This document shows positions 19,147 to 56,531 of a stretch of 64,000 nt of DNA, in pieces (position 1 is the stretch's first letter; each line of letters starts with the position of its first letter). This DNA comes from Verrucomicrobiia bacterium. GTDB lineage: Bacteria; Verrucomicrobiota; Verrucomicrobiia; Palsa-1439. Below the pieces are notes generated by a model. It was not told the origin of the DNA, ran no database searches, and saw only the letters and a program-made list of their open reading frames with translations. Location of the stretch: positions 129,045-193,044 of the forward strand of contig JBEKLM010000001.1 in the NCBI GenBank assembly GCA_050010195.1. The letters are read 5' to 3'. The translations under genes and the position numbers were made by a program.

Positions 19147-19197
19147 TTCCACACAACCTCGTATTTGTTGAACGAATAACTCCCGCCTGCCTGCCAA

Positions 19198-34251: not shown

Positions 34252-34329
34252 CGCAGTCCCCTGCGTCCGGAAACAGACCGGAACCGCCAGCCACCCCCCC
34301 GCCTTCTCTCCTCGCATCGAGGGACCGCG

Positions 34330-39720: not shown

Positions 39721-40072
39721 CTCTTATCCCTTTCTAAAAACGTCTGCATTGTTTATCCCGAGCACGGACTATGCCTATACATCATTGGCTATCGGAGGAT
39801 TGCTCACCCCATTCGCGGATGCGTCCCTGCCAGAAGCGCAAATACACCGACGCCTGTTTTTGTACCTCCGTCACAGCCAAAAGTCGATGTTGGAAGCATA
39901 GCAAGCCCGTTCATTGAATGACCGCGCTCTTGTGTAAAGGCTGGCTTCTGGCCAAGCAATGAGACACCGGATTCTGGTTGCCACGGGCCATCGTGCTCAC
40001 GCGCAGTCAAAAAAATAAGAGGGGAGCCCCGAAAACGAGGCGGCCCCGAGAGTCTTCAAAAAACACGCTCCC

Positions 40073-40966
40073 TCAGCGACAGCGGCGACGAACCAGTCCG
40101 ATCATCAGGGCGAGGCCCGTTGCGAGCAGCGCCAACGCCGACGGTTCGGGGATACTCGTGGTGATTGTGACGGAATCGACGTCCATGGCCGACGGAACGT
40201 CGGCCCCGTTCGAATACCAACCGAACGCCAGACCATCGAAGGTGCTGGTCAGATTAGTGGCACCCCCGGCGGTGCCGAACGTCTGCGAGAGAACACTCCC
40301 GCCGCTGGACAGGGTATTGGTGATGGAGAGCACACCGGCGGCACTGATCCATATTCTGAGGTCGTTCGTGTACGTGCTGCCCTTGGTCAACGCCGCTGAG
40401 GATGTTGCAGTGGCACCGTTTACTATTACTCCCTGGGGATTCTTGTATGCGAAACTGGAACTGTTCCCATTGCCGAGTAGATCCTGCTCATTTCCAGATG
40501 TCTGTGCCGGGCGGGTGAAGATCTGCGAAGCCCCGTTGTTCGTGGCCGTCATCCCTACGTACCCCAGCCAGTTCTGAACGCCGCCCGTATTGGTCACGGT
40601 GTCTGAATTGTCTGTGAGGGGCGCAACGCCACCGGAATTGTACAGTCCCATGTAGAGTTGCGCGCTTGTGCCGGCCAAAAGGTTCGAGGTGTCGTTGAAC
40701 ACCAATTGAAAATCAATAAAACCACCGACGTTCTGCAGCGCGACCGGCGAGGTGGTAAACAACGCCTGCGCTTCGACGCCGACGCCCGCCCTTTCTTCGC
40801 ACCGAGGGACCGCGCTACGGTCCGAGACGAATGCGGTAGTAGCGGGACGGGTTGTTGGTCGCGCCGCCCACATCACGATAACTGTTCGTCGCGTTTCCGC
40901 TTCCCGGAACGGCCAGCGGCCCACTGATGTCCAAGAAGTTGGTGGCGTAATTGCCACTGACATCAC
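40073..40966 (-). CDS. PEP-CTERM protein, paralog of 15712-16731. It appears N-terminally truncated (no signal peptide) and may be a pseudogene.
   Basis: C-terminus SIPEPSALALLATGLALMIGLVRRRCR. The body aligns with the 15712-16731 protein (FTSTPVVLQNTGDYIDF versus FTTSPVALQNVGGFIDF). Its 5' end is overlapped by 150 nt of the 3' end of the 40815-44483 gene. Confidence 0.45.
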   Translation of the reverse strand: MMSVAITPPTSWTSVGRWPFREAETRRTVIVMWAARPTTRPATTAFVSDRSAVPRCEERAGVGVEAQALFTTSPVALQNVGGFIDFQLVFNDTSNLLAGTSAQLYMGLYNSGGVAPLTDNSDTVTNTGGVQNWLGYVGMTATNNGASQIFTRPAQTSGNEQDLLGNGNSSSFAYKNPQGVIVNGATATSSAALTKGSTYTNDLRIWISAAGVLSITNTLSSGGSVLSQTFGTAGGATNLTSTFDGLAFGWYSNGADVPSAMDVDSVTITTSIPEPSALALLATGLALMIGLVRRRCR

Positions 40967-43900
40967 CGCTGGTCGCCTGGACCACGTTCGATGGCCCGGC
41001 GCCCGTTGCCCATGTGATCATCATTTCGCCATTGGTTTGTGGCACGACGCTGAGAATCCGGAACACCGAAGACGGATCGGTCGGGTTCAGGCCCAGCAGG
41101 AACTGGTTGGTGTTGCTGATGCCCTTGCCAAGCGGGTCCGCGTTTGGCGCTGCCTGTGGGCAACTGACGCACCCGAAGTAGTTTGACTGCCAAGAGGAGA
41201 ACGGATCTGCCACGGGGATCGTCAGCATCGCCGGGCTGCTGGTGGCGGCGCTCACGCTGTTGCTGACCACAACGGAATAGGCGCCCACATTGGTCGACTG
41301 GACACTCGTGACGGTCAGCGTCGAATTGGTCGCATTGGCGATGGGTGTATTCGTGTTGAAGTACCATTGGTAACTCAACGGCGCGCTGCCGCCGGCAACC
41401 ACGGTGAAGGTGGCGCTTTGGCCCGTCGAAACGGCCTGGCTTTGCGGACTGGCGACGATCATCGGCCCCGTCGGCGCATAGGACGTCACCAACCAGTTGG
41501 TCTTGTTCCACGTGAGCACGCCCGCGCCGGCGCCCGCCGTGGGGCTGGTGACGATGGCTTGCAGTTGGCCCGGATCATCCGGGTAATACGTGTAGGGCAA
41601 TTGGTTGCCCGTCAAATTCCACGAGAAGGGAATGATCGGCGCCTGGGCTGGACCGAAGTCGGCGAATCCGGTGGCATTCGTGCTGTCGCCCCGGTAATCC
41701 GTGGTCGAGCCATCGGTATTGTCAAAGTGATAGATCGAATCGAGCGCCATGATCTTGCCGGTGTATTCCGGATCCGACGGATCGGTCTGGTTGTTGCGAA
41801 GTGGGGTTATGCAATCGATATACACCGATTTCTCTACCAAAATGGCTCCGCTTTCCGTGGAGATCGTGCCGTTGACGGGTGGTTCAAAACTATAGGTGTT
41901 GTTGAGCGTATTTTGATCGGCGGTGCTCATGGTGGCCGCAATCGAATCGCGCAGGCGCCTAGCCGCCAGAACCAACGTGTCGTCCACATAGAGATTGTAA
42001 TCATGCACGTTGCCGGCCCGCAGGCGCGGCACGCAGCGATCCCAGACGCCCAAGTGCAGGTGGTGGAAGGTCATCGAGATGGTCGCGTTATTCGGGTCGA
42101 GATCATTTTGACCCGCCAGGTGCGTCTTGTCATGCGCTTGCATGATCGTGACGATGTTGGTGGTGCTGTAACCATGGGTGCGAAGGAAATTATACATCGG
42201 ATAGCTGGACGGACTCTGTTCCAAATAATTGATCTGCTGCCAGACCCAACTATTGGGATTGGTGGCGCCATCGTCGCCGACGTAATTGCACCAGGAAATG
42301 GTGATGCCCGAGCACCCGGCCTTGGTATCGAGATTGCCGTCGTAAGATTTCGTGAACGTGCAGTGATCCACCCAGATGTTGCTCACCGCACCGCCGTCGC
42401 CCAGCGTGATGAAATCCCAGTCATTTCGATCGTATTGTCCCTTGGTCGACTCATCCCATTCCCACAGTTGGTCGAACTTGAGATTGCGGACGATGATGTT
42501 GCTGCAGTTCTTGATGTTCAACTTGGCGTGATGGATGGCTGAACCGTTTGCGGAGAAAATCGTCAGGCCGTTTTTCTTTTGGACATCAACGTCGCTTTCG
42601 CCGGTCACCAGCAACACGGGATGAAGCAATGGTGTTTCACCGGAGCGGAAAGGTTCGCTGTTGGTTTTCGCAGACGCTTCGATTTCGTCATATCCAAGAT
42701 TGAGGTCGTTCATGATCTCAATGACCTTAACGGTCTTGCTGTTGAGCGCGTTCGCAAGGTCGGTCGCCGTATAAACCTTCGCGTAGTTGGGATCCGTGTC
42801 CACCAGCACGCCGCCGCCGGTCGTCCCCTGGGCAAAGCCGACCAGATTATACTCCGTGTTGACCACGGGCACGGTCGGTGTCACGGTCAGGAAGGCCGTG
42901 GTACTGGTCGCCATGCCTACGCTGTTGGAGGCCGTGACGTAGTAGCTGCCATCGGCGGTTGTCTGGACGTTGGGTAGGGTCAGAGTGGACGAAGTCGCAC
43001 CCGAAATCGGTACATTGTTGAGATACCATTGGTAGCTGATGGGCGCGGTACCGTCGGCGGACGAGGTGAGCGTGGCCGTGCTACCCGCCAAGACCACCTG
43101 CGAAGCCGGCTCCGAAGTAAACATCGGCGCCACGGGGTTTGTGTTCACATTGAGCATCGCGTTGGAACTGGTGGTACTGCCCGCGAGGTTGCTGACGACA
43201 ACGGAGTACAAGCCGGCAGCACCGGACTGAACATTGGTCAGAGTCAACGTGCTGTCGGTGCCGCCAGCCACCGGCGTGCTCGTGTTGAAGTACCACTGGT
43301 AGCTCAGGGGTTCGGAACCGCCAGCTTCGACGGTAAAGGTCGCCGTGTCTCCGGGCAAAACGGTCGTATCCTGCGGCTGCGTGATGATCGTCGGAGGATC
43401 GGGAGTGGTCACGGACAACTGGGCCACCGAACTGGTCACCACCCCGTATACGTTGGACACGATGACAGAATAGCCGCCGGCATCCGTCAACTGCGCGTTT
43501 GTGATTGTGATTGAGAAACTTGTGGCATTGGTCAGAAGCGAGTTGGTGTTGTAATACCATTGATAGAAAAGTGGCAACGTCCCACTGGCCAGAACGCTGA
43601 ACGAGGCCGTCTGGCTCACGAAGACTTGTTGGTCCTGCACATCTTCCGTGATCGAGGGAGCCGTAGCCCCGGGGATGTATTCCACTTTGACTTCCTGGAA
43701 TACGGTACTGGATGCTGCCTGGGTCGCCTCCGACGGACGGAAGCCAATCCCGTCAAAGTTGAAATTCGTGGCGTTGGTGTCGGTCACGGAAGTCAACAGA
43801 GTCGCGCCGTTGGTGGCATTCAACCAGGAGACGGTAACCGCCATCGCGTTGCTTGCGGTTCGTTGGAAGGCATACTGCAACGTGTAGGTCGTGCCATTGA

Positions 43901-44483
43901 CGAACCCGCTGAAGTTGTTCGTATTGCCGGGACCGGTCCCCAAAGACGTGTAGTCTCCCGACGTTCCCAATAGTGATGAGTCCGAGACATTCGTGCGTGC
44001 ACGAATGTCCATCGGTGTGGTGTTGTTGAATGCGGTCCCCATGTTCTGGAACAACGCGTATCCTTGGACTCCGGCACCCTGCGAGCTGTTGCTACTGAAG
44101 TCTGCGGCTACACGGTTGGAGCCGAACTCATAGACGCCCAACCGAAAGCCCTCTGAAGAATTCACGGCAGCCACACCATTGAAAGTAAACGTAATCGTCG
44201 TCAAAAGAGTGTCCCCGATTGTGAGTTGGACAGGGCTGGCGGCATTGGTCGTGAAATAGGAGACCGCCAGGACGGCGCTGCTGCCGATCGTAAGGGTCAT
44301 GGAATTCGTCGCGGTGGTTAGCGCGGAACCGTTGGAGGCATACCACGCGGCGTTCGTTGGCAAGCTGGTGTTATTGCGGTTTCCGTCAGCCCACGTATCG
44401 TCCAGAATGACGACGGCATGGCTGGGTGTCGCAAGGCCGACCATTGCGGCCATAACAAAAACACTGCGAAAAAGATGCTTCAT
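40815..44483 (-). CDS. Giant secreted PL1-family pectate lyase (about 1220 aa). It has an N-terminal lectin-like domain, Ig-like I-set repeats on both sides of the catalytic beta-helix, and the conserved C-terminal domain ...NNPSRYYRIRLGP.
   Basis: Signal peptide MKHLFRSVFVMAAMVGLATPSHA at the ATG at 44483. PL1 motifs: vWiDH (NIWVDHCTF), DGNLDTK, R.PR.R.G..H..NN (RCVPRLRAGNVHDYNLY). Ig-like units QWY[FY]NT...TLTNVQ. Confidence 0.8.
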   Translation of the reverse strand: MKHLFRSVFVMAAMVGLATPSHAVVILDDTWADGNRNNTSLPTNAAWYASNGSALTTATNSMTLTIGSSAVLAVSYFTTNAASPVQLTIGDTLLTTITFTFNGVAAVNSSEGFRLGVYEFGSNRVAADFSSNSSQGAGVQGYALFQNMGTAFNNTTPMDIRARTNVSDSSLLGTSGDYTSLGTGPGNTNNFSGFVNGTTYTLQYAFQRTASNAMAVTVSWLNATNGATLLTSVTDTNATNFNFDGIGFRPSEATQAASSTVFQEVKVEYIPGATAPSITEDVQDQQVFVSQTASFSVLASGTLPLFYQWYYNTNSLLTNATSFSITITNAQLTDAGGYSVIVSNVYGVVTSSVAQLSVTTPDPPTIITQPQDTTVLPGDTATFTVEAGGSEPLSYQWYFNTSTPVAGGTDSTLTLTNVQSGAAGLYSVVVSNLAGSTTSSNAMLNVNTNPVAPMFTSEPASQVVLAGSTATLTSSADGTAPISYQWYLNNVPISGATSSTLTLPNVQTTADGSYYVTASNSVGMATSTTAFLTVTPTVPVVNTEYNLVGFAQGTTGGGVLVDTDPNYAKVYTATDLANALNSKTVKVIEIMNDLNLGYDEIEASAKTNSEPFRSGETPLLHPVLLVTGESDVDVQKKNGLTIFSANGSAIHHAKLNIKNCSNIIVRNLKFDQLWEWDESTKGQYDRNDWDFITLGDGGAVSNIWVDHCTFTKSYDGNLDTKAGCSGITISWCNYVGDDGATNPNSWVWQQINYLEQSPSSYPMYNFLRTHGYSTTNIVTIMQAHDKTHLAGQNDLDPNNATISMTFHHLHLGVWDRCVPRLRAGNVHDYNLYVDDTLVLAARRLRDSIAATMSTADQNTLNNTYSFEPPVNGTISTESGAILVEKSVYIDCITPLRNNQTDPSDPEYTGKIMALDSIYHFDNTDGSTTDYRGDSTNATGFADFGPAQAPIIPFSWNLTGNQLPYTYYPDDPGQLQAIVTSPTAGAGAGVLTWNKTNWLVTSYAPTGPMIVASPQSQAVSTGQSATFTVVAGGSAPLSYQWYFNTNTPIANATNSTLTVTSVQSTNVGAYSVVVSNSVSAATSSPAMLTIPVADPFSSWQSNYFGCVSCPQAAPNADPLGKGISNTNQFLLGLNPTDPSSVFRILSVVPQTNGEMMITWATGAGPSNVVQATSGDVSGNYATNFLDISGPLAVPGSGNATNSYRDVGGATNNPSRYYRIRLGP

Positions 44484-44834
44484 AGAAAAACCCTTTACTG
44501 GATGCGTGCAAGGCATACGTTACGCATTCACTCTGTCTTCCGTCGTAAGTGACTATCCCACAGATGATTCCCCTCAAGACTGCTGCGGAGAACCTCGCAG
44601 CTCACCATAGCACTATTTATACCTTGAGTCCCGCCACAAGTCGATGCTGGAGGCGTAGCAAGTCCGTTCATTGAGTGAAAACGCTCGCATACGAAGAAAT
44701 CCGGCATGTTCTCACCAGCGAGAGACAGCGTTCTGATTGTGTCCGGAGGCTGTCCCCACGCCATCATGGGAAAGCAAAGAGGGCGTCCCAAACGTATTCG
44801 GGACGCCCTCCGGAGGTTTCTTTACAAGTCCGTG

Positions 44835-45650
44835 TTAGCGACGACGGCGAGCCAGGCCGATCATCAGCGCCAAGCCCGATCCAACCAACATCCATGTGGA
44901 CGGTTCAGGGACTGGAGTCACATCCGCCCATGTCGTGCCAATAAGAAGGTTGTCAACGAGATAACTGCCCGTGGTGGCGGCAGCCTGAGCTTTGAAACCC
45001 ACATTGTCGATCGCTGTCGCTGTGCTTCCTGCCAAACTCAACGTGGCCGCCGGCATGGCGCCGCCGGGGGTCGGATTCAAGTACAGGTAGGCGGTCGATG
45101 CCGAAAAATCAAATTCCTCAACCACGAAATACGTCGTATTTAGCGACAACGGGCCGCTTGTCACCGTACTTTTACCGGCCGTTCGCAATCCAATGTTACC
45201 GTTGGAATAGAGATAACAGTCAATGGCGTCGGCGCTGCCACTCGGAGCTGTCGTGCTCGGATTCATCGCGGTGAAGTACTGATTGCCACTGTCCGGGGTA
45301 ACCACATCAAGGAGAAAGGAATAGTAGATCTGTCCACTGGTCTGATTTGCGAATGTATTAATGGAACTTGTAGCGCTCCCGTTGGTGATGGAAAGTTCGT
45401 TGCCGCCCTGATCGGCCAAACCTGGATAAGTCAGGTCGCCGCTGGTAATGCTCAAAGTGGTGGCTGCAGTTGTCCATGCTGTGCTATTGCCAGGGTTTGT
45501 TTTGCCAGCAAGAGCCCCCGGCGAGTAGTTGAATGCCTCCGAAAAGAGAAGTGTGGCGCTGGCGCTCTGCAAGAGCAAACAACTCACACCTAGGACGGCA
45601 ACCCACAACTGAATTTTCGAAGGCTGTATCGGATGATTTAGCATTCCCAT
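44835..45650 (-). CDS. PEP-CTERM sorting-domain protein (271 aa).
   Basis: Signal LWVAVLGVSCLLLQSASA. C-terminus VPEPSTWMLVGSGLALMIGLARRRR. Confidence 0.7.
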   Translation of the reverse strand: MGMLNHPIQPSKIQLWVAVLGVSCLLLQSASATLLFSEAFNYSPGALAGKTNPGNSTAWTTAATTLSITSGDLTYPGLADQGGNELSITNGSATSSINTFANQTSGQIYYSFLLDVVTPDSGNQYFTAMNPSTTAPSGSADAIDCYLYSNGNIGLRTAGKSTVTSGPLSLNTTYFVVEEFDFSASTAYLYLNPTPGGAMPAATLSLAGSTATAIDNVGFKAQAAATTGSYLVDNLLIGTTWADVTPVPEPSTWMLVGSGLALMIGLARRRR

Positions 45651-46026
45651 ATGCTTCTCCCTAAGTTTTCCACAGCTTGTTTAGCAAACCCCTGTACCCC
45701 GACAGCAAATTTGCACGGCCCACTCGCATGGCTGGCTTCGTCGGAACCGCAGTAAATCACATTGCTACTGAATAATTTATAGCGCAAAGCCTCGCACAAA
45801 GTCGATGCCCGATGCGTAGCACATTCGCTCATATCGCGAACCCGCTCTTATCCAGGGGTCGCCACGGACCACCGTCAACCAAGTGCGACCAGACCTATCG
45901 ACTAGTGGGTGTAGGTGTAGTTCCAGAAACTTCAATTATAGTGGAGCGGAGCATGTTGTACACTTGGATCCCCGCAAGGATTAAAGCGCCGACACTTCGA
46001 GACACTTGCGCCGGCACCCCACATTG

Positions 46027-47394
46027 TCATTTCTGGACCGGATCTTTCCAACCGTCCACCTCGGCGTTCTCGGTCAGAAGCGGAGGGCCCTCCCTGTTGG
46101 TCAACTGGACGTTCTTGAATTGAATCCCCTTGGCGTTTTTGACTGACAGGCCGGTCGTGGCCGCGGCGATCTGGACGTTTTCCAGAAAGACATTCGAGAT
46201 CTCACTCTCTGGCAACCCGATGATGATGCCGGCTGACTTCTGGCAGGTGGCTTTCACGTTGTTGAAGTAGATGTTTCGAAAGATCGGTGTTCGTTCCGAC
46301 TTCGCTTGCGCGGGGTCAACTTTCGGAGGCGATTGCGGTACTCGATCACCCGATGAATTGTTCATATAATAGCACGTCAACGTGATCGCGGGATCCACGT
46401 TATTCATGGTGATATCAGTGTAGCGAATGTTCTCCACCACGCCACCTCGCCCTCGAGCCGATTTGATGCGAAGCCCGTTTTCGGTGTCTTGAAAGGTACA
46501 GTTTGTCACCAACACGTTGTGCACGCCGCCGGATGTTTGACTGCCAATGGACATGCCATGCCCGTGTAAAAACATGCAATCCGAGACCGTGATGTTTTCG
46601 GAGGCAAACTCGCGCCCCGCAACCTTGTGGGTGGCATTGATGGCGACGTTGTCATCCCCCACGTCGACATGGCACTTGGTGATCAGGACGTTCTTGCAGC
46701 AAATGGGATCGATGGCGTCGGTGTTGGCGGAATGCGCCGGCGCTTGAACCGTCACATTGGAAATGATCACGTTCTCGCAATCCGTTGGCACGAGGTGCAT
46801 GCACGGGGAATTCTGCAAGGTCACGTCGCTCACGAGGAGGTTCTTGCAGCCCGTGATAACGATCAGCCGTGGTCGGGGCAGCGTGTAGCCCGGCGTCTTG
46901 CGCCGGGCTTCTTCGGCCGGAATCCACCACTTCGCTCCCGCGCCGTCAATCGTGCCCGGGCCGACGATCGCGACATCGTGAATATCTCTCCCGTTCACGA
47001 ACGCGATGAACGAATTCGTCCGTTCGGGATTCACGAAATCCGCGGTTTCATCCGTCGTCTGGAGGACCGCACCCGCGTCCAGTTTCACCGTCGTGCTGCT
47101 GTGCAGGAAAATGGGCTTGCTCAAGTAGCTGCCCGGGGGAAACTGCACGGTGCCGCCACCGGCGTTCCCGCACTCGTCGAGGGCCTTCTGGATCGCCCCG
47201 GTATCCAGCGTCTTGCCATCCCCTTTCGCGCCAAATGCTCGGACATTAAACACTTTGCCGGACGCGCTGGCGGCCGGTGTGGCGGTATCCGCCGCCCAAC
47301 CGCTGAGGATGGGCAGACATACCCCTGACAGCAGTAAGCACAGCTTCGCGTGAAAAGCCCGCTTCCACTTCATCGAATCGTTCATAATTCTCAT
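46027..47394 (-). CDS. Glycoside hydrolase family 28 (polygalacturonase / exo-poly-alpha-galacturonosidase).
   Basis: Signal peptide. GH28 motifs SANTDAIDP, VGDDNVAI, HGHGMSIGS, GLRIKS. The protein is of canonical size (455 aa). Confidence 0.85.
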   Translation of the reverse strand: MRIMNDSMKWKRAFHAKLCLLLSGVCLPILSGWAADTATPAASASGKVFNVRAFGAKGDGKTLDTGAIQKALDECGNAGGGTVQFPPGSYLSKPIFLHSSTTVKLDAGAVLQTTDETADFVNPERTNSFIAFVNGRDIHDVAIVGPGTIDGAGAKWWIPAEEARRKTPGYTLPRPRLIVITGCKNLLVSDVTLQNSPCMHLVPTDCENVIISNVTVQAPAHSANTDAIDPICCKNVLITKCHVDVGDDNVAINATHKVAGREFASENITVSDCMFLHGHGMSIGSQTSGGVHNVLVTNCTFQDTENGLRIKSARGRGGVVENIRYTDITMNNVDPAITLTCYYMNNSSGDRVPQSPPKVDPAQAKSERTPIFRNIYFNNVKATCQKSAGIIIGLPESEISNVFLENVQIAAATTGLSVKNAKGIQFKNVQLTNREGPPLLTENAEVDGWKDPVQK

Positions 47395-47430
47395 TCTTGA
47401 TACTGACTCCTTTCACTCGAAAGCATTGAA

Positions 47431-48306
47431 TCATTTCTTTACGGCCAACTTCTGTTCCAGCCACGCGATCAGCTTTTCCTTGTAGCTCGGGTCGAACTTG
47501 TCCCACTCGGTGATCCGGTGTGGCGCGCCTTTGATTGTGACGATGTCGTTCATGACGCCGTTTCCCTTGAGCTTCGACATGAACTTGAGGGTTTGATCAT
47601 ACGGAACGGTCTTGTCAACATCGCCCTGGACGAAGAGAAATGGCGGCAGGCCCGGCTTGACATAGGTGATTGGCGACATTTCCTTCAGCAGCACTCTCGT
47701 CGGATCATCCGCCGTTTCGCGGCCAAACAAGGCTTGCAGCGATTGGCTAAGGCCGCCACGTCGTTCCGTGTCGGCAACCATGTCCGTCGGCGGCGAAAAA
47801 CCGACCACGGCTTGCACGCGGGTGTCTTCCTTGGCCAGCACGGCAGCCAGACAGGCCAATTGTCCACCGGCCGAGTATCCCATCAGGGCCACACGCTGTG
47901 GGTCGCCCTTGTACTCCGTGGCGTGAGCCTTGGCCCAGCGAATGGCCGTCTGCACGTCCTCGAAGCACGCGGGCCAGTGGTTCGTCGGTGCCATGCGGTA
48001 GTTGATTGAGAACCACGTGAACTTCCCGGATTTCGTCAGTGGCTCCAGGACCACGGTTACATCCTTGTGCTTGTCACCGCTGGTCCAGCCACCGCCGTGT
48101 ACCATGATGACCATGGGGAACGGCCCGCTGCCATCGGGGATGTGCGCGTCCAACCGCAGGCTCTCACCCGCTGCCCGGCCATATTCGATGTCCGGTTTGT
48201 CCTCGGCGAATACAATGCCCCCGAACAAGGCGGCCAGCGACAGCACTGCTCGAAACGTTCTGATGGAGGCTCCCGTCATGCGACGATTTCTCTTGCGCCA
48301 AATCAA
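47431..48306 (-). CDS. Secreted alpha/beta-hydrolase esterase (carbohydrate esterase-like; candidate pectin acetyl/methyl-esterase or carboxylesterase).
   Basis: Signal peptide. Oxyanion HGGGW, nucleophile elbow GYSAGG, acid/His region GDVDKTVP...HR. The start may be the internal Met at 48279. Confidence 0.7.
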   Translation of the reverse strand: MIWRKRNRRMTGASIRTFRAVLSLAALFGGIVFAEDKPDIEYGRAAGESLRLDAHIPDGSGPFPMVIMVHGGGWTSGDKHKDVTVVLEPLTKSGKFTWFSINYRMAPTNHWPACFEDVQTAIRWAKAHATEYKGDPQRVALMGYSAGGQLACLAAVLAKEDTRVQAVVGFSPPTDMVADTERRGGLSQSLQALFGRETADDPTRVLLKEMSPITYVKPGLPPFLFVQGDVDKTVPYDQTLKFMSKLKGNGVMNDIVTIKGAPHRITEWDKFDPSYKEKLIAWLEQKLAVKK

Positions 48307-48351
48307 AACCCTTCCCAGACTGTTTGGGAAGTTGAATCAAGGAGCATTTTC

Positions 48352-48984
48352 ATGCAGTCGATATTTCTGAGACGAATCGTCCCCGTGGTCGTCATCGACA
48401 AGGCGGAAGACGCCGTGCCGCTGGCCGAGGCCTTGCTCGCCAGTGGGCTCGACGTGATGGAGGTCGCGTTCCGGACACCCGCAGCCGCGGCAGCAATCCG
48501 CAACGTCCGCGAGACATTCCCGGCGATGTTCGTGGGGGCGGGCACGATCCTCGACGAGGATCAACTCCACCGCGCCGTGGATGCGGGCGCACAATTCGGC
48601 GTCGCTCCCGGACTCAACGAGACGATCGTTTTAAAGGCCCTCGCTTTGAAACTGCCGTTCGTCCCCGGCGTGATGACGCCCTCCGATGTCGAACGTGGCC
48701 TCACCCTGGGCTGCAAACTCCAGAAGTTCTTCCCCGCCGAAGCCGCCGGTGGCGTGAAGATGCTCCAAGCATTCGCGGGCCCGTTCGGGCCGACCGGTGT
48801 GAAGTTCGTCCCCTTGGGTGGCATCAACACAAGCAACGCCGGCCACTATCTGGCGATACCGATTGTCGCGGCCATCGGCGGGTCGTGGATGGTCGATCGC
48901 AAACTGATTGCGGAGAAACACTGGAAGACCATCCGCGATCTGACTGCCGAAGCGGTACGAATCGCGGCTCCATCTGCCGTTTAA
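48352..48984 (+). CDS. eda: 2-keto-3-deoxy-6-phosphogluconate (KDPG) aldolase.
   Basis: ATG at 48352 with AAGGAG upstream. VPVVVIDKAEDAVPLAEALLASGLDVMEVAFRT...FFPAEAAGGVKMLQAFAGPF...GGSWMV collinear with E. coli Eda. Confidence 0.88.
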   Translation: MQSIFLRRIVPVVVIDKAEDAVPLAEALLASGLDVMEVAFRTPAAAAAIRNVRETFPAMFVGAGTILDEDQLHRAVDAGAQFGVAPGLNETIVLKALALKLPFVPGVMTPSDVERGLTLGCKLQKFFPAEAAGGVKMLQAFAGPFGPTGVKFVPLGGINTSNAGHYLAIPIVAAIGGSWMVDRKLIAEKHWKTIRDLTAEAVRIAAPSAV

Positions 48985-49641
48985 GCGGTAGCGTTTTTCT
49001 ACATTCGCGCAGTGGGCCTAACCGACGATGCTGACTGCAAGAAACGAAGACGAATCTGTCGTAGATGAAGCGCAGTTGGCCCGGTCCGATACCCACGTAA
49101 TTCCCCAACAGGCTCCGCAACGAAGCCCGAGCAGCCATAAACCGCCTAGCATCCACACTGTTCAGGAATCGACTGGCGCGTTCTTGCTCGTCAGGCGACA
49201 GAATCGACCGAAAGCCTGGCAATCGCTCCGGCACGAGGTCGAGAGCAACGACCCACAGCTGCGCCTCGGCATCGCCCAGGTCGCCCGGTCGGTTGCGGAA
49301 CGGCCACGGACTCGTCATGGTTTGGATGCTTTCGATACCATTGACCTGGCCATGAGAGAAAGGTTAGAAGTCGTCCGGGTGTAACGGATGAAGGGGCAAA
49401 GGCCATCAGCGATACCAGACTCATGACGATGCGCGGCGTGGCATTGCCGACGCGCAGCGAGTTCCGCGGGTGGGCCAGATCCTCCATGCTGGTCTGGATC
49501 TACTCGCGGCGCCACTTTCGAAGTTTCATTATCTCCTTGTGTTACTGCTGCCAATGATGGCAAAGGTGTTCCGTACCCGGCTCCTGCCGAACAAATGGAA
49601 ATGGCTCGCGTTAATTGCCGGAGTTGTTAGTTTCGGCAACG

Positions 49642-51192
49642 ATGACTAAGCGGGTGGAAATAGCGCTGCTGCTGGCGATCATTGTGGTCGGGTTCGTCCT
49701 TCGCTGGACGGGACTGGAGTGGGGCGAAGGCTACCAACCGTCCGCCATCGGCGACGAGATCGAAGCATACCGCGTCGGGCTGGGACTCGTACACGGTGAG
49801 CGGCAGGCATTTTATCTTGGCGAACCGGAGGACTCCGGCGTGCACGTGGCCGGGCCGCTCTTCGCGTTGTGCTGGGCGGGGCTGCTGTTGGCCGGCGGCG
49901 GACCGGACGCGATGACGGCCACGATCATCGTGTTGAGCATGTTCGGCATCATTCTTGTGTATCTGCTCGCCAAGAGACTTTTCAACGGCCCAGTCGCGTT
50001 GTGGGCGAGCTTGTTTTGCGCGACGTCGCCATGGCCGGTGTATAACAGCGTCGGCTGCTGGAGTCCACCGTTCATGGCCGTATTGGGCGCGGCACTGTAT
50101 CTGGCCTTGTGGGACGTGATGACGCGGCCCAGGTCAGCACAGGTGTTTTGGGTGATGTTGATCCCGGCGGCGATGCTGCAGTTTCACATGTTCGGGATGT
50201 TTCTGCTGCCGGGTATTCTCGTACTGCTCGGCTTGCGGTTCCCCGAGGTGAACCGACGTTGGTTGATCGCCGGACTGGTGGCCGCCGTGCTGCTGTACGT
50301 GCCCTACGTCGTTGGCGAGACACTGAATGACTGGGAGAACACTCGCAAGTTCCTCAGTGTGCATAATTCATTTTCGGTCGCCTCGTTCAAAAGTCTGTCG
50401 TTGCCGGTTGCGGCCATGAGCAGTTACTTCGCCAGCGCCGTTGGCGGACGTTTTGCGGAATACGGGCAGTTCGGTGATGACATGTTCGGTTCGTTCGGGG
50501 TGGTGTTGACGTTCAACGCGCTCTCGATCGTGTTAGCTGTTGTGTTTGTCGCACACTTTGTGCGCCGGCTGATTGCCGCGCTTCGGGGGAACTGGTGGGC
50601 GCCGCGCCGAGCATGGGCGGCGGCTCCGGCGACGGTTTTTGCCGGCGTGCTGCTGCTGACGCCGCTGCTGTTGTTCGCGCTCATCGGCCGCAATTACGCC
50701 AGCCGGTACGTCATCGTTGAGTATCCGCTGTTGTTTCTGCTGCCCGCGCTGTTTCTGACGGCGCCGATTGGGCCGCGCTGGCGCAAGCTGATCGGCGCGG
50801 CGGTGACGCTGACCGTCGGCTTCAACCTCCTGCTGACGCCAGCGTTCTTCCGGTACCAGCGAAACCTCATCGACCACGGCGATTACTTTGTTGCGAGTTT
50901 TCGCCGGATGGAGCAGGTGCATCAACAGCTCGTCGCCGACGCCGGGCCGGCGTGCCGCGTGCGTGTGGATCCGGCGGCGTTCGCGGGGCCACGGTTTGCC
51001 AGCACCAATTGCGGTCCTTGGCTCCTGGCGACGTACGTGGACGTGGTCGAGCATTACGACCCGCAGCGGCAAGCAGCGCAGCAGGTGCAGGTGTACCGCG
51101 CCGAGCGGCTTGCCAATTTGGCGGAAGGCCGGGCGGCGGTCGTTTATGCAGGACACGGAATCGCGCTGGTGAAAGCGCCACACCAACGGTAA
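49642..51192 (+). CDS. ArnT/PMT-like GT-C polyprenyl-phosphate-sugar dependent glycosyltransferase (polytopic membrane protein).
   Basis: About 13 TM helices. N-terminal loop with an acidic motif (GDEIEAY). Overall resembles ArnT/LgmB 4-amino-arabinose/glucosamine transferases. ATG at 49642; the track ORF begins at a TTG at 49615. Confidence 0.55.
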   Translation: MTKRVEIALLLAIIVVGFVLRWTGLEWGEGYQPSAIGDEIEAYRVGLGLVHGERQAFYLGEPEDSGVHVAGPLFALCWAGLLLAGGGPDAMTATIIVLSMFGIILVYLLAKRLFNGPVALWASLFCATSPWPVYNSVGCWSPPFMAVLGAALYLALWDVMTRPRSAQVFWVMLIPAAMLQFHMFGMFLLPGILVLLGLRFPEVNRRWLIAGLVAAVLLYVPYVVGETLNDWENTRKFLSVHNSFSVASFKSLSLPVAAMSSYFASAVGGRFAEYGQFGDDMFGSFGVVLTFNALSIVLAVVFVAHFVRRLIAALRGNWWAPRRAWAAAPATVFAGVLLLTPLLLFALIGRNYASRYVIVEYPLLFLLPALFLTAPIGPRWRKLIGAAVTLTVGFNLLLTPAFFRYQRNLIDHGDYFVASFRRMEQVHQQLVADAGPACRVRVDPAAFAGPRFASTNCGPWLLATYVDVVEHYDPQRQAAQQVQVYRAERLANLAEGRAAVVYAGHGIALVKAPHQR

Positions 51193-51420
51193 GACGACGT
51201 GAACCGGCGATTGGCCGCCGCGGTCGCATGACGAACGGAATGCGGACGGCGCTGCTGGTCCTTGTGATCGCCGCGGACCTATCGATGCAGAATTAACTTG
51301 TCAGCAGTCTCAATGGCGATACGATGGCTGCTCGCAAGCCGTCGTGCAGAACAACCGACGAAACAGCACAAAGCTGATGCCGCTGAAGAAGACGATTTGC
51401 AATTGCACGATTGACCTGTC

Positions 51421-52458
51421 ATGACCAGTTCCAAGGCGCTCAAGCTTCTGACAGTTGTGACCGCGGCCCATAATGAGGCGGTCAACTTGCGGCCGCTGGT
51501 GGACCGGCTTAGCGTCGTGGCCGGTACGTTGGACGAATGGGAAGTGGCATTGCTGGTCGTGGACGATGGCAGCCGCGACAACAGCATTGCCGTGTTGGAT
51601 CAGTTGCGCGGCGAAGGTCAACCGGTCGGTTACTTGCGGTTGGCGCGAAATTTCGGCCATCAAGCGGCCTTGCAGGCCGGCGTGGCCGCCGCACGCGGCG
51701 ATGCCGTGCTGACCATGGATGCGGACCTGCAACATCCGCCCGAATGCATTCCGCAGATGCTGCAGGCGTTCGCGCGGGGAGCCGATGTGGTGCACATGGT
51801 CCGCAACCGTCCAGCGTCCGGCAATAAGGGACGTCTATCGCGGCTGTTTTACCGGATCTTCGCTGTGCTGGCGCACAGCGAGATTGTTCCCGAAGCGGCT
51901 GACTTCCGTTTGTTGAGCCGCCGCGTCGTGGAGGTGCTCAAGCAGATTCCCGAGCGGGAAAAATTTCTGCGCGCGTTGATTCCCTCTCTGGGCTTTCGCC
52001 AAACGGTGCTCCAGTTTGATGAGGATTGCCGTCAAGGCGGCGATCCGAAATACAGTTTCATGCGCTCGTTGGGCCTCGCACAAAAGGCGTTGTTCGACTT
52101 CAGCACGATCCCATTGCGGCTGGTGTTTTGGGCGGGAACCTTTTTGGCGCTGACCAGCTTCTGTTGGGGGATCGGCCATCTCGTCAAAAAGCTGGTTGCC
52201 TGGGAGTCCATCACCCCTGGGTTTACCGACATCATTACCTCGATTCTGTTCTTGTCAGGTTGCATCCTGGCTGCGATTGGAATACTCGGTCGATACCTGA
52301 TTCTGATTCTTGAACAAGTTCGGGGGCGACCGGACTTCATCGTGATGGAGAAGGTCGAAGCCGGCCCGCTGTCGAGTCAGAGCCGCCGGCCGCGGAATGG
52401 AGCACGAATTCTTGGTGCCGTTTCCGACCCGGCCGCCGGCTTGCGTCACCACAGATGA
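51421..52458 (+). CDS. GT2 polyprenyl-phosphate sugar synthase (ArnC/DPM1/LgmA-like) with 2 C-terminal TM helices.
   Basis: LTVVTAAHNEAVNL...VVDDGSRDNS...DADLQHPPE...RLLSRRVV. This matches the GT2 DXD/ED architecture of ArnC-like enzymes. Confidence 0.8.
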   Translation: MTSSKALKLLTVVTAAHNEAVNLRPLVDRLSVVAGTLDEWEVALLVVDDGSRDNSIAVLDQLRGEGQPVGYLRLARNFGHQAALQAGVAAARGDAVLTMDADLQHPPECIPQMLQAFARGADVVHMVRNRPASGNKGRLSRLFYRIFAVLAHSEIVPEAADFRLLSRRVVEVLKQIPEREKFLRALIPSLGFRQTVLQFDEDCRQGGDPKYSFMRSLGLAQKALFDFSTIPLRLVFWAGTFLALTSFCWGIGHLVKKLVAWESITPGFTDIITSILFLSGCILAAIGILGRYLILILEQVRGRPDFIVMEKVEAGPLSSQSRRPRNGARILGAVSDPAAGLRHHR

Positions 52459-52459
52459 A

Positions 52460-53320
52460 GTGAAGCAACTCGTCATCAACGCCGACGATTTCGGGCTCGA
52501 CCCGGCCGTCAACGCGGCGATCGCCAAAGCCCACACGGACGGCCTGTTGACCAGCGCCAGTTTGCTGATCGCCGCACCGCACGCGGCCGAGGCCATCGAG
52601 TTTGCCAGGTTCCACCCGCACCTTGGCGTCGGCCTTCATCTTTGCCTGGTGGACGGTCGCTCCGCGGCGCTGCCGGACAAAATCCCGTCGCTGGCAACGG
52701 CCATGGGTCAGTTGCCGCCGAGTCCGTTCGCTCTCAGCGTCCGATTGTCGTCCAATAAACAATTGGAGACCGACATCGAAATCGAACTCCGCGCGCAAAT
52801 CAGCCAGTTCATGACGACCGGCCTGCGTCCAACCCATTTCGATACACATCAGCATACGCATCTCCACCCGCGCGTGCGGACCATCGTCGCCCGCCTCGCG
52901 CGCGAGTATGGCGTCACCTACATCCGCGCACCGGTCGAACCCCTGTGGCCGGCCCTCTGCTGCAACCGGCAGCGCCTGCCGCGGAAACTCGTCCGCTGGA
53001 CGATCTTTTCCACGCTCGGCTCGTGGACGAAACGGCAACTGCGGCAACAGGGTTTCCGCACGGTCGACCGCGCGGTCGGTGTCCTTGACCCCGGGCATCT
53101 GACCGAGGAATTTCTCGCACCCTACCTGCGCCGATTGCCGGACGGTCTTACCGAGGTGTTCTTCCACCCCGCCGATCGACCGGCCGAACCTCTTCTCCAG
53201 ATGCAGCGCGGCTACGAACACGCCGCCGAACTCCAGGCCCTCTGTAGCCCGCAGTTGCGCCAGCTCATCAACGACTCCGGCATCCGCCTCACCAATTTCC
53301 GAGAATTGGCCCTGCCCTGA
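52460..53320 (+). CDS. YdjC/ChbG-family carbohydrate deacetylase (HpnK/LgmC-like).
   Basis: LVINADDFGLDPAVNAAIAKAH...FHPHLGVGLHLCLVDG...HFDTHQHTHLHP. A GTG start at 52460 sits 2 nt after the GT2 stop; the track ORF begins further upstream, inside the GT2 gene. Confidence 0.75.
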   Translation: MKQLVINADDFGLDPAVNAAIAKAHTDGLLTSASLLIAAPHAAEAIEFARFHPHLGVGLHLCLVDGRSAALPDKIPSLATAMGQLPPSPFALSVRLSSNKQLETDIEIELRAQISQFMTTGLRPTHFDTHQHTHLHPRVRTIVARLAREYGVTYIRAPVEPLWPALCCNRQRLPRKLVRWTIFSTLGSWTKRQLRQQGFRTVDRAVGVLDPGHLTEEFLAPYLRRLPDGLTEVFFHPADRPAEPLLQMQRGYEHAAELQALCSPQLRQLINDSGIRLTNFRELALP

Positions 53321-53334
53321 GCTTGTCGAAGGGT
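53315..53334 (+). repeat. 20-nt direct repeat copy 1 (CCCTGAGCTTGTCGAAGGGT), flanking an AT-rich island.
   Basis: A second copy at 53748-53767 differs at a single position. Both contain the short inverted repeat CCCT...AGGG. Confidence 0.5.
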
Positions 53335-53709
53335 TCGATTGGCTGAATTCAGCCACCTCGGACGCCCATTCGAACCCCAAACGAACCCAACACAAAACAG
53401 CCCTATCATATCGCCGTAACTCCTTGTCCCCCAACCGCCGAAAAGCCAGATTTTTGTCCATTATAATTGGCTTCGTTTTGCCGAATTACACATATGGGGC
53501 GTTCCCCCTGCCCATTGGCCTCATCAATTCCCAACTCTGAACCCCGAACCGTTAACCTTGAACATCGGTCCGCCCTCTATTTCAAAGAACCATAACGGTA
53601 CCCATCATACACTACCGCATATCGCTTGTCTATATAAATCTATCGGCACACCGATTTCCGTAGAAACCATCCGCCCGAGGACCCGGAAATAACCGCTCGC
53701 CGCGCCTAG

Positions 53710-54174: not shown

Positions 54175-54798
54175 TCAGATCGACTTGCGGAACCAAGTCG
54201 GATCGGCCTTGTCCGTCGTGAACCCCATCTTGCGCAGATACCCCTGATGGGCCTTGACGCCACTGCACGCCGCGAACGTGCGAAATCCCTGCTCGCGCAA
54301 TGTCGTCTGGTTGGCAGCGTAAAAAAACCGCGCGTTCTTGAGATCCCGATAGTCGGGAATGACGTAGTCCATTACGATATTGACCACTCCGGCCGACTGC
54401 GGTTCGTAGACGAAGAGCCCGACGGGCATGAGATTTCGCAGAACGAAGATGGACTGCGGCTGGCTCAGTCGCCTCCAGTCGAATTCCGGAAAATACCGCG
54501 CAATGTCCGCCCGGTAGTATTTCAGGAATTCATCGCGAATTGCCGACCGATCCGGGGCGATCGGCACCAGGCTGAAGTAATCGCGCCGCGTCGAGATCCG
54601 ATACAGGTAATAGGCGTCCGCCCCGGCGATAAACGCGTTCAGCAACAACACCGGATACGACCGCAAGCACAGTCCATACACCGTAAACAGCAGCGCGCCG
54701 GCCAGATTGATCCAACGCAGCTTCCAAATGTTGTCCATCAACAATGATGCGGCGATCAATATCGAGCCAGCGTAACCAATCCATTCCGTCCGTTGCAT
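54175..54798 (-). CDS. Hypothetical membrane-anchored protein: an N-terminal YgjV-like 2-3 TM segment plus a soluble C-terminal domain.
   Basis: MQRTEWIGYAGSILIAASLLMDNIWKLRWINLAGALLFTVYGLCL... Its amino-acid composition is protein-like, unlike the overlapping plus-strand ORF 54067-54747. Confidence 0.4.
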   Translation of the reverse strand: MQRTEWIGYAGSILIAASLLMDNIWKLRWINLAGALLFTVYGLCLRSYPVLLLNAFIAGADAYYLYRISTRRDYFSLVPIAPDRSAIRDEFLKYYRADIARYFPEFDWRRLSQPQSIFVLRNLMPVGLFVYEPQSAGVVNIVMDYVIPDYRDLKNARFFYAANQTTLREQGFRTFAACSGVKAHQGYLRKMGFTTDKADPTWFRKSI

Positions 54799-55013: not shown

Positions 55014-56531
55014 CTACTTCCCCCCAGAAGATTCACGAGACAGCGCCCGGTCCAGATTGATTTGCGCGTCCATGTAATCGGGCTTGATTCGCAAGGCCTG
55101 ACGGTACTGCTCGACCGCCTCCGGCACCTTCCCCGCCTGCAGCAAAGCCGTCCCCAGATAGTTGTGCGCCTCCGCAAAATCAGGTTTGAGCTCCACCGCT
55201 CGTTGGAAGTGCGCGATCGCAGGAGAAATTTTCCCCGACCTCCCCAGCGCCAGCCCCAGGTTGTATTGCGCCATCCACGCCTCGGGGTTCTTGGTCACGG
55301 TATCGAGCCACAGAGTTTCGCTGGTGGCGTAAACCCCGGCCCGCACCCACGTGCCAACCTCCAACGCCATCAGTACAACCACGCCCACCACCATGCCCAA
55401 GGTCTTCCCCAGCCCGCTGAGCTTGCGGACAAGCACAACCCCGCCCGACACGACCAGCGCGACGATTCCGATGATCGAGTAGTACTGCCAGTGGTCCGCC
55501 ACCAGCGAGTAGTCGTAAAACCCTTGATCGAAAAATCCCAACACCGGGAACAGCGTCACCACAAAATACCCCACACCGAACAACAACGGTCGCCCCCACG
55601 TCTTTCGCTTCCACCAAAACAGCGCCAGGCATCCCACCAGCAACAACAACGGAAGCCAGGACGTCCCCCGAGATGCATCGATGTTCCACTTCGGATAGAT
55701 CACGGACAAATTGACCGGCCATAGCACCTTGCCCAGGTAAAACCAAATCGCCCAACCTGCTTCCGCCAGTCGTGAAAGAAACCCTCCCGCTCGGAACGTG
55801 GTCCCTCTCAAGACACGATGATACTGAAACCAAACGGTCGCCAAGCCGAACAGAAGCGACAACGCGAAAATTGGCGCGCCGCGCAGCCAGTCTTTCCATC
55901 GTAATCGGCCATGCAACCACCACACGCATCCCAACAGCGCGACCGGCAGCATGACCACCGCCGTCTTGCTGAATAACGCCAGCAGAAACGCTCCCAACGA
56001 CAACCCATAATAGTCCCACCGGCTTTCTGCGTCGAACCTCAGGTACAACAGGATCGCCACGCAGAAAAACAGCATGGACAACGTGTTCTTCTGCTCGCTG
56101 ATCCACGCCGCCGTGGCCACGTTCACCGGATGAATCGCAAACACCAGCGCCGCCAGCCACGCGCCCGGAATGTTCAGCCGACACAGGATGATCCAGACCA
56201 GCACGGCATTGGCGGCGTGCAAGAGAACGTTAAGCACGTGATAACCCGCCGCGTGATCGCCCCACCACCGCCATTCCAGCCACCACAAACTGCCCGTCAG
56301 CGGATAGTAGTCCGCCGCACCCGCCCCGGACCACAACAGGCGGATTCCATTGTCCGCCCGCACCATTCCGTTTTCCGTGATGAGCGGATAATCATCGAAA
56401 ACGAACCCGCCGCGCAACGCGGGCAGGTAGACGGCGAACGTGATCAGAACAATCAGCCCCGCTTTGGGCAGGAACGCCGGCCGGAACATCGTCGGGCACC
56501 GCGGATATTGGACTGCGGGGACAGTTTGCAA
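55014..56531 (-). CDS. TMTC-like GT-C/TPR membrane protein, paralog 4.
   Basis: DD motif GFVFDDYPLITENGMV. About 11 TM helices. C-terminal TPRs AIAHFQRAVELKPDFAEAHNYLGTALLQAGKVPEAVEQYRQALRIKPDY. Confidence 0.7.
   Translation of the reverse strand: MQTVPAVQYPRCPTMFRPAFLPKAGLIVLITFAVYLPALRGGFVFDDYPLITENGMVRADNGIRLLWSGAGAADYYPLTGSLWWLEWRWWGDHAAGYHVLNVLLHAANAVLVWIILCRLNIPGAWLAALVFAIHPVNVATAAWISEQKNTLSMLFFCVAILLYLRFDAESRWDYYGLSLGAFLLALFSKTAVVMLPVALLGCVWWLHGRLRWKDWLRGAPIFALSLLFGLATVWFQYHRVLRGTTFRAGGFLSRLAEAGWAIWFYLGKVLWPVNLSVIYPKWNIDASRGTSWLPLLLLVGCLALFWWKRKTWGRPLLFGVGYFVVTLFPVLGFFDQGFYDYSLVADHWQYYSIIGIVALVVSGGVVLVRKLSGLGKTLGMVVGVVVLMALEVGTWVRAGVYATSETLWLDTVTKNPEAWMAQYNLGLALGRSGKISPAIAHFQRAVELKPDFAEAHNYLGTALLQAGKVPEAVEQYRQALRIKPDYMDAQINLDRALSRESSGGK

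Follow-up and report, generated by a model that had tools for sequence, protein, structure and literature searches.

A chimeric glycosyltransferase and YdjC deacetylase cassette with a candidate role in lipid-linked aminosugar transfer in a Verrucomicrobiia bacterium

Results

Layout of the cassette

We analysed a 64,000-nucleotide stretch of contig JBEKLM010000001.1 from a Verrucomicrobiia bacterium (the window, numbered from its first letter), and in it a set of three genes that encode a GT-C-type membrane glycosyltransferase, a family 2 glycosyltransferase (GT2) and a YdjC-type deacetylase. An earlier reading made from the sequence alone had likened this set to LgmABC, the genes of lipid A glucosamine modification; its three open reading frames (ORFs), all on the plus strand, lie where that reading had placed them. 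Lengths are in amino acids (aa) or nucleotides (nt).

49642-51192, plus strand: GT-C membrane glycosyltransferase, 516 aa, ATG start
51193-51420, no strand: spacer between the GT-C and GT2 genes, 228 nt, with one weak sigma-70-like site at 51298-51325
51421-52458, plus strand: GtrB/ArnC-type GT2 (polyprenyl-phosphate glycosyltransferase), 345 aa
52460-53320, plus strand: YdjC deacetylase ('YdjC_A' clade, auto-annotated HpnK), 286 aa, GTG start

The genes had been described as tightly linked, which is true of the GT2 and YdjC genes, with one base between the GT2 stop codon (TGA, 52456-52458) and the YdjC GTG at 52460, but not of the GT-C and GT2 genes, which are 228 nt apart. Scans of the cassette for promoters and terminators gave no signal above shuffled background. 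Homologs of the GT-C protein begin at the position of ATG 49642 (an alternative TTG lies at 49615), and the YdjC orthologs all start with GTG at the same position; the in-frame ATG at 52397 would give a YdjC protein of 307 aa. The GT-C protein is 100% identical to ABSD58_00735, a protein of a metagenome-assembled genome at NCBI, and the same cassette arrangement was found at ~99% identity in an independent metagenome assembly (L093; such labels denote the loci compared). Upstream of the cassette is a pectin-degradation region (GH28 enzymes, UxaC, UxaE, KDPG aldolase, PEP-CTERM proteins), and downstream are a hybrid histidine kinase, a CHASE8 kinase, a YfiR-like protein and a TonB-dependent receptor. 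The gene caller was home-made and crude (it overlooked the KDPG aldolase gene, for example), so that the neighbourhood counts given below are approximate.

The spacer also contains a 22-codon mini-ORF (51228-51296) for a hydrophobic peptide, MTNGMRTALLVLVIAADLSMQN, which may be a gene remnant or due to chance. An antisense ORF of 374 aa (52337-53461) matched no family and was discarded as a shadow ORF.

Enzyme families

The GT2 matched Pfam Glycos_transf_2 at 1.3e-28. Its closest solved relative is GtrB sll0501 (5EKP; 1e-54, end-to-end alignment), followed by ArnC at ~1e-34, so GtrB, and not the ArnC of the earlier description, is the nearer relative. The best NCBIfam match was PgfS (1e-60), with ArnC at 1e-39, both far under the equivalog cutoffs. 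The DXD and DDGS motifs are invariant in an alignment with homologs of 73, 59 and 60% identity, and the C-terminal region aligns with the GtrB membrane hairpin. The protein thus has the marks of the ArnC/GtrB family of polyprenyl-phosphate GT2s, C-terminal membrane hairpin included.

The GT-C protein had been called ArnT-like, a label that survives only at the level of fold. Pfam PF02366, the ArnT/PMT family, gave no match (E. coli ArnT itself scores 2.4e-62), and the match to Pfam PMT_2 (21.7 bits) was under the cutoff of 26.1. Alignment of the family against E. coli ArnT with hhalign found no relation (probability 0.1), the same comparison with the neighbouring GT-C/TPR protein (described below) gave no informative match, and a sequence search of PDB chains returned nothing even at E<=10. 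Among the 39 nearest outgroup proteins, 20 matched PMT_2 and one matched PF02366. An AlphaFold2 (AF2) model built with 15 homologs reached a pLDDT of 83.7 and a pTM of 0.86, and the top 17 Foldseek matches to it were all GT-C enzymes. The best TM scores were to ArnT (5EZM, 0.53/0.51), which is only one of many fold matches, with ALG12, Pmt4, ALG9 and the oligosaccharyltransferases (OST) STT3/AglB close behind; the strong matches all take donors linked to a lipid phosphate. Residue D38 is invariant, while E39 occurs in ≥90% of sequences; both lie, by the homolog alignment and the AF2 model, in the helix after the first transmembrane (TM) segment. Acidic residues after TM1 are the usual GT-C catalytic position, and the protein accordingly has the hallmarks of the fold: multiple membrane spans, with acidic residues in the first extracytoplasmic loop. 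It also carries a small C-terminal alpha/beta domain, and neither Pfam nor the model gave it a TPR or other protein-binding domain. The family is small, with 96 cluster representatives among 1.84 billion at E<=1e-30. Judged from profiles and the model, the GT-C protein is a member of a small uncharacterised family in the PMT_2 assemblage.

The YdjC protein matched Pfam YdjC at 3.5e-68 and has neither a signal peptide nor a TM segment. The sequence-only reading had named loss of the metal-binding Asp and His residues as a sign that it was wrong; all are present and invariant (D9-D10 in NADDFG, H60, and H126/D128/H130), as expected of a member of the YdjC deacetylase superfamily.

The HpnK label

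The automatic name HpnK derives from an NCBIfam model (TIGR03473) of the type 'hypothetical equivalog', which the window YdjC passes with 257.9 bits against a cutoff of 232.6. Veillonella-type proteins are caught by this model as well, and spurious HpnK matches were noted in a survey of hopanoids (bioRxiv 10.1101/2025.07.29.667474). Among the 73 loci retrieved with the YdjC profile, HpnI occurred in 24 and HpnJ in 24, and proteins 33-40% identical to the window YdjC sit in genuine HpnI-HpnJ-HpnK(-HpnL) clusters. No HpnI, HpnJ, HpnL, HpnD or shc-type gene was found in the 64-kb window or in the 8-10 kb around members of the window YdjC clade (L006-L010). Because no hopanoid genes are linked to it, the name HpnK is an over-annotation for the window YdjC. 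We flag the mis-annotation as systematic: many proteins that bear the name HpnK are encoded away from hopanoid clusters, and they probably act in other pathways of lipid-linked N-acetylhexosamine (HexNAc).

A recent chimera of two module versions

The history of the cassette could be read from related loci. In L006, a relative of ~86% DNA identity (85-89% in aligned blocks), both flanks of the cassette are collinear with those of the window; L009 represents a third state.

L006: upstream of YdjC, UxaE, an intact GT87-family GT-C gene (419 aa) and a short, TM-less GT2 (281 aa); downstream, ~120 bp and then the kinase genes
L009: upstream of YdjC, a 5'-truncated GT87 gene and the short GT2; downstream, ~3 kb including a 207-aa ORF and a GT-C/TPR gene
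Window: upstream of YdjC, UxaE, a 16.3-kb pectin island, GT87 fragments, the GT-C gene and the GtrB-type GT2 gene; downstream, 3.4 kb including the 207-aa ORF and the GT-C/TPR gene

The window features that this comparison brings in are as follows.

52390-52459, plus strand: 3' recombination junction; similarity to GT2 homologs stops near 52388, and similarity to the relatives' locus begins at 52460
49285-49610, plus strand: fragments of a GT87-family GT-C pseudogene together with the region upstream of it, from tblastn and from blastn against L006
54175-54798, minus strand: 207-aa ORF with a hydrophobic N-terminal third, conserved with the GT-C/TPR gene in L009
55014-56531, minus strand: second GT-C protein (PMT_2-like) with C-terminal TPR repeats, convergent to the cassette; matches Pfam TPR and PMT_2 (7.2e-5)

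With the L006 GT87 protein as query, tblastn placed its residues 1-23 at 49423-49491 and its residues 327-364 at 49500-49610 of the window, in different frames. The blastn blocks agree, L006 5705-5910 corresponding to window 49285-49490 and L006 6807-6891 to window 49487-49570, after which homology restarts exactly at the YdjC GTG. The window GT-C and GtrB-type GT2 genes occupy the place of the 3' end of GT87 and of the short GT2, which is only 21-24% identical to the window GT2. On the other side, the YdjC partners of window-type GT2s belong to a different clade and are 24-27% identical to the window YdjC (three aligned). The cassette is thus a recent evolutionary chimera of two module versions, in which new parts were placed upstream of a resident YdjC gene. 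The replacements among L006, L009 and the window make the locus a hot spot of rearrangement in which YdjC is the element that stays constant.

The GT2 gene retains traces of this event. Its third-codon-position G+C content (GC3) is 0.705, against 0.78-0.79 in its two neighbours, and in the alignment mentioned above its last 20-25 residues form an extension without counterpart in the homologs. The gene has lost its original stop, with read-through of about 22 codons to the TGA just before the YdjC start. The close spacing of the GT2 and YdjC genes does not reflect long-standing translational coupling; it is a recombination scar, the edge of a recent gene replacement.

The dN/dS of the YdjC gene against L006 and L009 is 0.20-0.22, equal to the value between those two relatives, which have kept the short GT2. 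Between the window and L093 (10819-11676 in the latter), however, YdjC differs at 7 positions, 5 of them nonsynonymous, versus 5 differences in 2589 nt of the GT-C and GT2 genes (Fisher p=0.014). The changes in L093 are T141N, N169S, R170P, R204C and L285P, of which R170 and R204 are conserved in the family; an assembly error could account for them.

Linkage of the three functions in other loci

Homologs of the window GT2 with 57-73% identity were followed by a YdjC gene at 0-105 nt in five of the six loci examined (L089, L090, L091, L127, L129), the YdjC proteins being of the different clade noted above and 255-265 aa long. Three of these five loci are flanked by a membrane protein, two of them of GT-C type (Mannosyl_trans2, DUF2079) and one without a known family. 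Because five of six relatives lie directly upstream of YdjC, the product of the window-type GT2 clade is very probably a HexNAc lipid that has to be deacetylated. In the window YdjC clade (51-86% identity; L006-L010, L095, L103), the short GT2 always precedes YdjC and a GT-C gene often does.

The GT-C family adjoins the short GT2 in eight loci (L007, L095, L103, L107, L108, L111, L115, L126), three of which have a window-type YdjC, and a GT87 gene lies downstream of a family member in three loci. A more distant GT-C clade (34-38% identity) forms GtrB-GtrA-GT-C sets beside heptosyltransferase, WaaA and Kdo-kinase genes. Three functions thus recur together despite non-orthologous replacement of each (two GT2 types, two YdjC clades, at least four GT-C families and one unclassified membrane protein), and this recurrence argues for a functional module of GT2, YdjC and GT-C rather than chance adjacency.

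Discussion

Relation to known systems

Decoration of the envelope with cationic amino sugars governs surface charge, resistance to antimicrobial peptides and recognition by the immune system, and to our knowledge it has been characterised only in a few Proteobacteria. The Bordetella locus has lgmA (GT2), lgmB (GT-C), lgmC (deacetylase) and lgmD. The sequence-only reading had seen the Lgm gene order in the window cassette; the order GT-C, GT2, YdjC is not that of Bordetella, and the cassette has no flippase gene. Compared at the level of enzyme class, the two share the same three enzymes and the same inferred logic, and differ in that the window GT-C lies outside the ArnT/PMT Pfam family and no LgmD- or ArnEF-like flippase gene is present in the cassette. 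LgmB adds glucosamine (GlcN) to lipid A phosphates (PMC11401268). The FlmF2-NaxD-FlmK pathway of Francisella and Acinetobacter, which adds galactosamine to lipid A, offers a likeness at superfamily level: NaxD, a YdjC-superfamily enzyme, deacetylates undecaprenyl-phosphate-linked N-acetylgalactosamine before its transfer to lipid A (PMC11279074), which is the second step proposed below, although the window YdjC groups with 'HpnK-like' proteins.

The ArnC-ArnD-ArnT-ArnEF pathway of E. coli, which places 4-amino-4-deoxy-L-arabinose on lipid A, follows a similar plan, in that a GT2 loads a blocked amino sugar on undecaprenyl phosphate, a cytoplasmic hydrolase unblocks it and a GT-C enzyme transfers it; ArnC is a relative of the window GT2, and ArnT is the best fold match of the window GT-C. 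It differs in the unblocking enzyme (ArnD, a deformylase of another fold family, in place of YdjC) and in its transferase, which belongs to PF02366. With HpnI-HpnK, the cassette has in common the nearest annotated YdjC relatives and a chemistry, the deacetylation of lipid-bound N-acetylglucosamine; unlike that pair, it has a GT-C enzyme, a partner GT2 other than HpnI and no linked hopanoid genes. GtrABC, CsbB-YfhO and PgfS-PgfM likewise couple a GtrB-family GT2 to a GT-C transferase, but they work without a deacetylase and usually with GtrA, whereas the cassette has YdjC and lacks GtrA; a set of GtrB, GtrA and GT-C without deacetylation was seen only with the 34-38% GT-C clade. The cassette would work like Lgm, Flm/Nax and Arn, but its GT-C enzyme is not of the ArnT/LgmB/FlmK family (GT83, PF02366) and it lacks a flippase gene. 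What stands of the original proposal, a lipid-linked aminosugar cassette of three enzyme families, is therefore its functional logic, which the comparative linkage bears out, and not the LgmABC or ArnT label.

A candidate pathway and its acceptor

GtrB/ArnC-type GT2s make lipid-phosphate-linked sugar donors, and GT-C enzymes take such donors. We lean, modestly, towards a pathway from polyprenyl-phosphate-HexNAc via polyprenyl-phosphate-hexosamine to periplasmic transfer. In the first step, to judge from its family, the GT2 would work on the cytoplasmic side of the inner membrane, where it would load polyprenyl (undecaprenyl) phosphate with HexNAc taken from a nucleotide sugar. The cytoplasmic YdjC would then deacetylate this lipid to polyprenyl-phosphate-hexosamine, as do NaxD and LgmC, a role suggested by its family, intact catalytic residues and linkage. 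A flippase encoded outside the cassette would bring the lipid to the periplasmic face, where the GT-C enzyme, on the evidence of its fold and linkage, would pass the cationic hexosamine to an acceptor. Lipid A or the inner core of lipopolysaccharide (LPS) seems the most plausible acceptor, and a protein or another glycan a less plausible one.

There are weak hints that the acceptor may be lipid A or the LPS core: a GT-C homolog lies in a WaaA, Kdo-kinase and heptosyltransferase cluster (L004, L116), and the short GT2 and YdjC pair adjoins LpxK and GT9 (L008, L010). The Akkermansia lipooligosaccharide literature gave nothing decisive on free-amine sugars.

Several observations weigh against the proposed pathway or its acceptor. 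A tblastn search with GtrA found no GtrA-like gene in the window, and no member of the ArnE-like family turned up among the ORFs scanned around the cassette; ArnE-like genes accompany other YdjC clades. The further GT-C loci showed no consistent LPS context, a few having LPS genes and others unrelated neighbours. The GT-C gene stands alone in ~15 loci, and most homologs of 44-47% identity lack both GT2 and YdjC. In sequence, the window YdjC is closer to proteins in HpnK contexts than to anything tied to NaxD or LgmC. The absence of the GT-C protein from the family of ArnT, noted above, belongs here too, as do the L093 differences in YdjC, which may reflect relaxed constraint after the swap. 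Finally, since the GT2 and YdjC derive from separate lineages of the module, their compatibility is an assumption.

Alternative explanations

The juxtaposition could instead be accidental, with the incoming GT-C and GT2 forming an ordinary two-part glycosylation pair that handles a polyprenyl-phosphate-hexose (of the Gtr or CsbB/YfhO type). YdjC, deprived of its short GT2 by the replacement, would then be orphaned, decaying or idle, and would not use what the new GT2 makes. The junction is a scar rather than a conserved coupling, each of the two genes usually pairs with a different partner, and distant GT-C relatives work with GtrB and GtrA and no deacetylase; together with the nonsynonymous excess in YdjC between the window and L093, with conserved residues changed in the latter, this keeps an orphaned YdjC a live rival, albeit an unlikely one in our estimate. 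It has to be set against the habit of close GT2 relatives of lying directly upstream of a YdjC gene, and against the way the replacement spared this one, keeping its ORF from the first codon with a 1-nt spacing. The window YdjC retains all conserved residues, its dN/dS against L006 and L009 is about 0.2, and the arrangement persists in at least two assemblies.

Should the lipid-linked hexosamine be real, its acceptor might still lie elsewhere than lipid A or LPS, the donor feeding protein or glycan glycosylation, for example via the GT-C/TPR protein at 55014-56531 and its three paralogs in the window. That gene lies beside YdjC where GT87 is truncated (L009 and the window) but not in L006, which has an intact GT87; its orthologs are 87% identical in L009 and 99% in L093. 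In another locus (L086), a GT-C/TPR homolog is directly upstream of a YdjC and ArnE-like pair. The window has four GT-C/TPR paralogs in all, the best NCBIfam match of the GT2 comes from a protein-glycosylation system (though far below cutoff), and PMT and OST enzymes rank close to ArnT in the fold search. The cassette GT-C itself, however, lacks TPR repeats and any other protein-binding domain, the GT-C/TPR gene lies 1.7 kb away in convergent orientation, and both halves of the module occur in LPS-gene contexts. We regard such an acceptor as rather improbable.

A hopanoid side chain, with YdjC a true HpnK acting on N-acetylglucosaminyl-bacteriohopanetetrol, is very improbable. The NCBIfam score, the relatives of 33-40% identity in genuine hopanoid clusters and the occurrence of HpnD, YdjC and ArnE-like genes together in other Verrucomicrobiota would fit it. 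The HpnD-linked verrucomicrobial YdjCs are, however, a separate clade of 34-35% identity, the partner GT2s are not HpnI, and the hopanoid route as known has no step for a GT-C enzyme; hopanoid genes are missing from the window and from the surroundings of clade members L006-L010, and the model behind the score has the limits described above. Synthesis of GlcN-PG by GpgSDF was ruled out as a family, since its enzymes are a GT4 and a COG3233 deacetylase rather than a GT2 and a YdjC.

The locus suggests that uncultured Verrucomicrobiia of soil and peat follow the three steps of the known systems with parts that are not orthologous to theirs, and these parts appear to have been exchanged as cassettes around a fixed deacetylase gene. 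The part-swap at this locus implies that the two module versions have parts able to replace each other in function, and the locus offers a concrete, testable enzyme set (GT2 and YdjC). A broader and more doubtful possibility is that sets of GT2, YdjC and GT-C, widespread in Verrucomicrobiota, Planctomycetota and Acidobacteriota, are a mix-and-match toolkit for adding hexosamine with a free amine to targets in the envelope that are not lipid A phosphates, such as secreted or PEP-CTERM proteins via a TPR-bearing GT-C. If so, the window would be a natural part-swap that demonstrates interchangeable parts.

Related loci and neighbouring genes

Several other arrangements of YdjC genes were seen. 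HpnD (presqualene diphosphate synthase) and a YdjC of the HpnD-linked clade occur together in Verrucomicrobiota loci L086 (7794-10807), L071, L082, L049, L042 and L059; an ArnE-like small membrane protein follows in most of them and was not detected in L059, and in L086 HpnD and YdjC are separated by the gene for a 728-aa GT-C/TPR protein. In Negativicutes (Veillonella, Phascolarctobacterium, Anaerovibrio; L052, L054, L063, L070, L030, L073, L088), an 'HpnK-like' YdjC is followed by a UPF0104/TIGR00374 flippase-like gene that weakly matches the GlcN-PG flippase model, which suggests an uncharacterised amino-glycolipid pathway in non-hopanoid bacteria. In L015, L031, L035, L039, L046, L050, L067 and L079, mostly Acidobacteriota, YdjC is followed by a GtrB-like GT2 of 330-353 aa. 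This pair adjoins HpnI or HpnJ in L035 and L079, where hopanoid and polyprenyl-linked pathways may not be sharply separated.

In the GT-C clade of 44-47% identity, a 205-aa gene with an HNH-endonuclease domain (87-100% conserved) usually lies upstream on the opposite strand (L001, L094, L096-L098, L100, L102, L110, L117, L119, L124), directly adjacent in most and ~4 kb off in L096 and L110. An HNH gene also follows YdjC in L008.

The 16.3-kb block at 32972-49284, absent from L006, is a pectin-utilisation island that was either inserted in the window or lost from L006. It encodes UxaC, a 1796-aa GH28/PKD/Ig protein, a 1233-aa Ig/pectate-lyase protein, a PEP-CTERM protein, a GH28 enzyme, an esterase and the KDPG aldolase. 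The 207-aa ORF at 54175-54798 has no Pfam match, lies in a region near-identical in L093 and is possibly an accessory gene.

The membrane proteins with C-terminal TPR arrays are encoded at 17104-19197 (minus strand), 19496-21436 (plus), 21463-23529 (plus) and 55014-56531 (minus), and probably these four paralogs are what the sequence-only reading had called many GT-C protein glycosyltransferases. The proteins at 21463-23529 and 55014-56531 are 49% identical over nearly their full length; the other two are similar only in the TPR region. The window also holds a second, intact GT87-family gene at 1278-2687 (minus strand; Pfam GT87, 1.9e-25), a distant paralog (23-26% identity by tblastn) of the GT87 gene destroyed beside the cassette.

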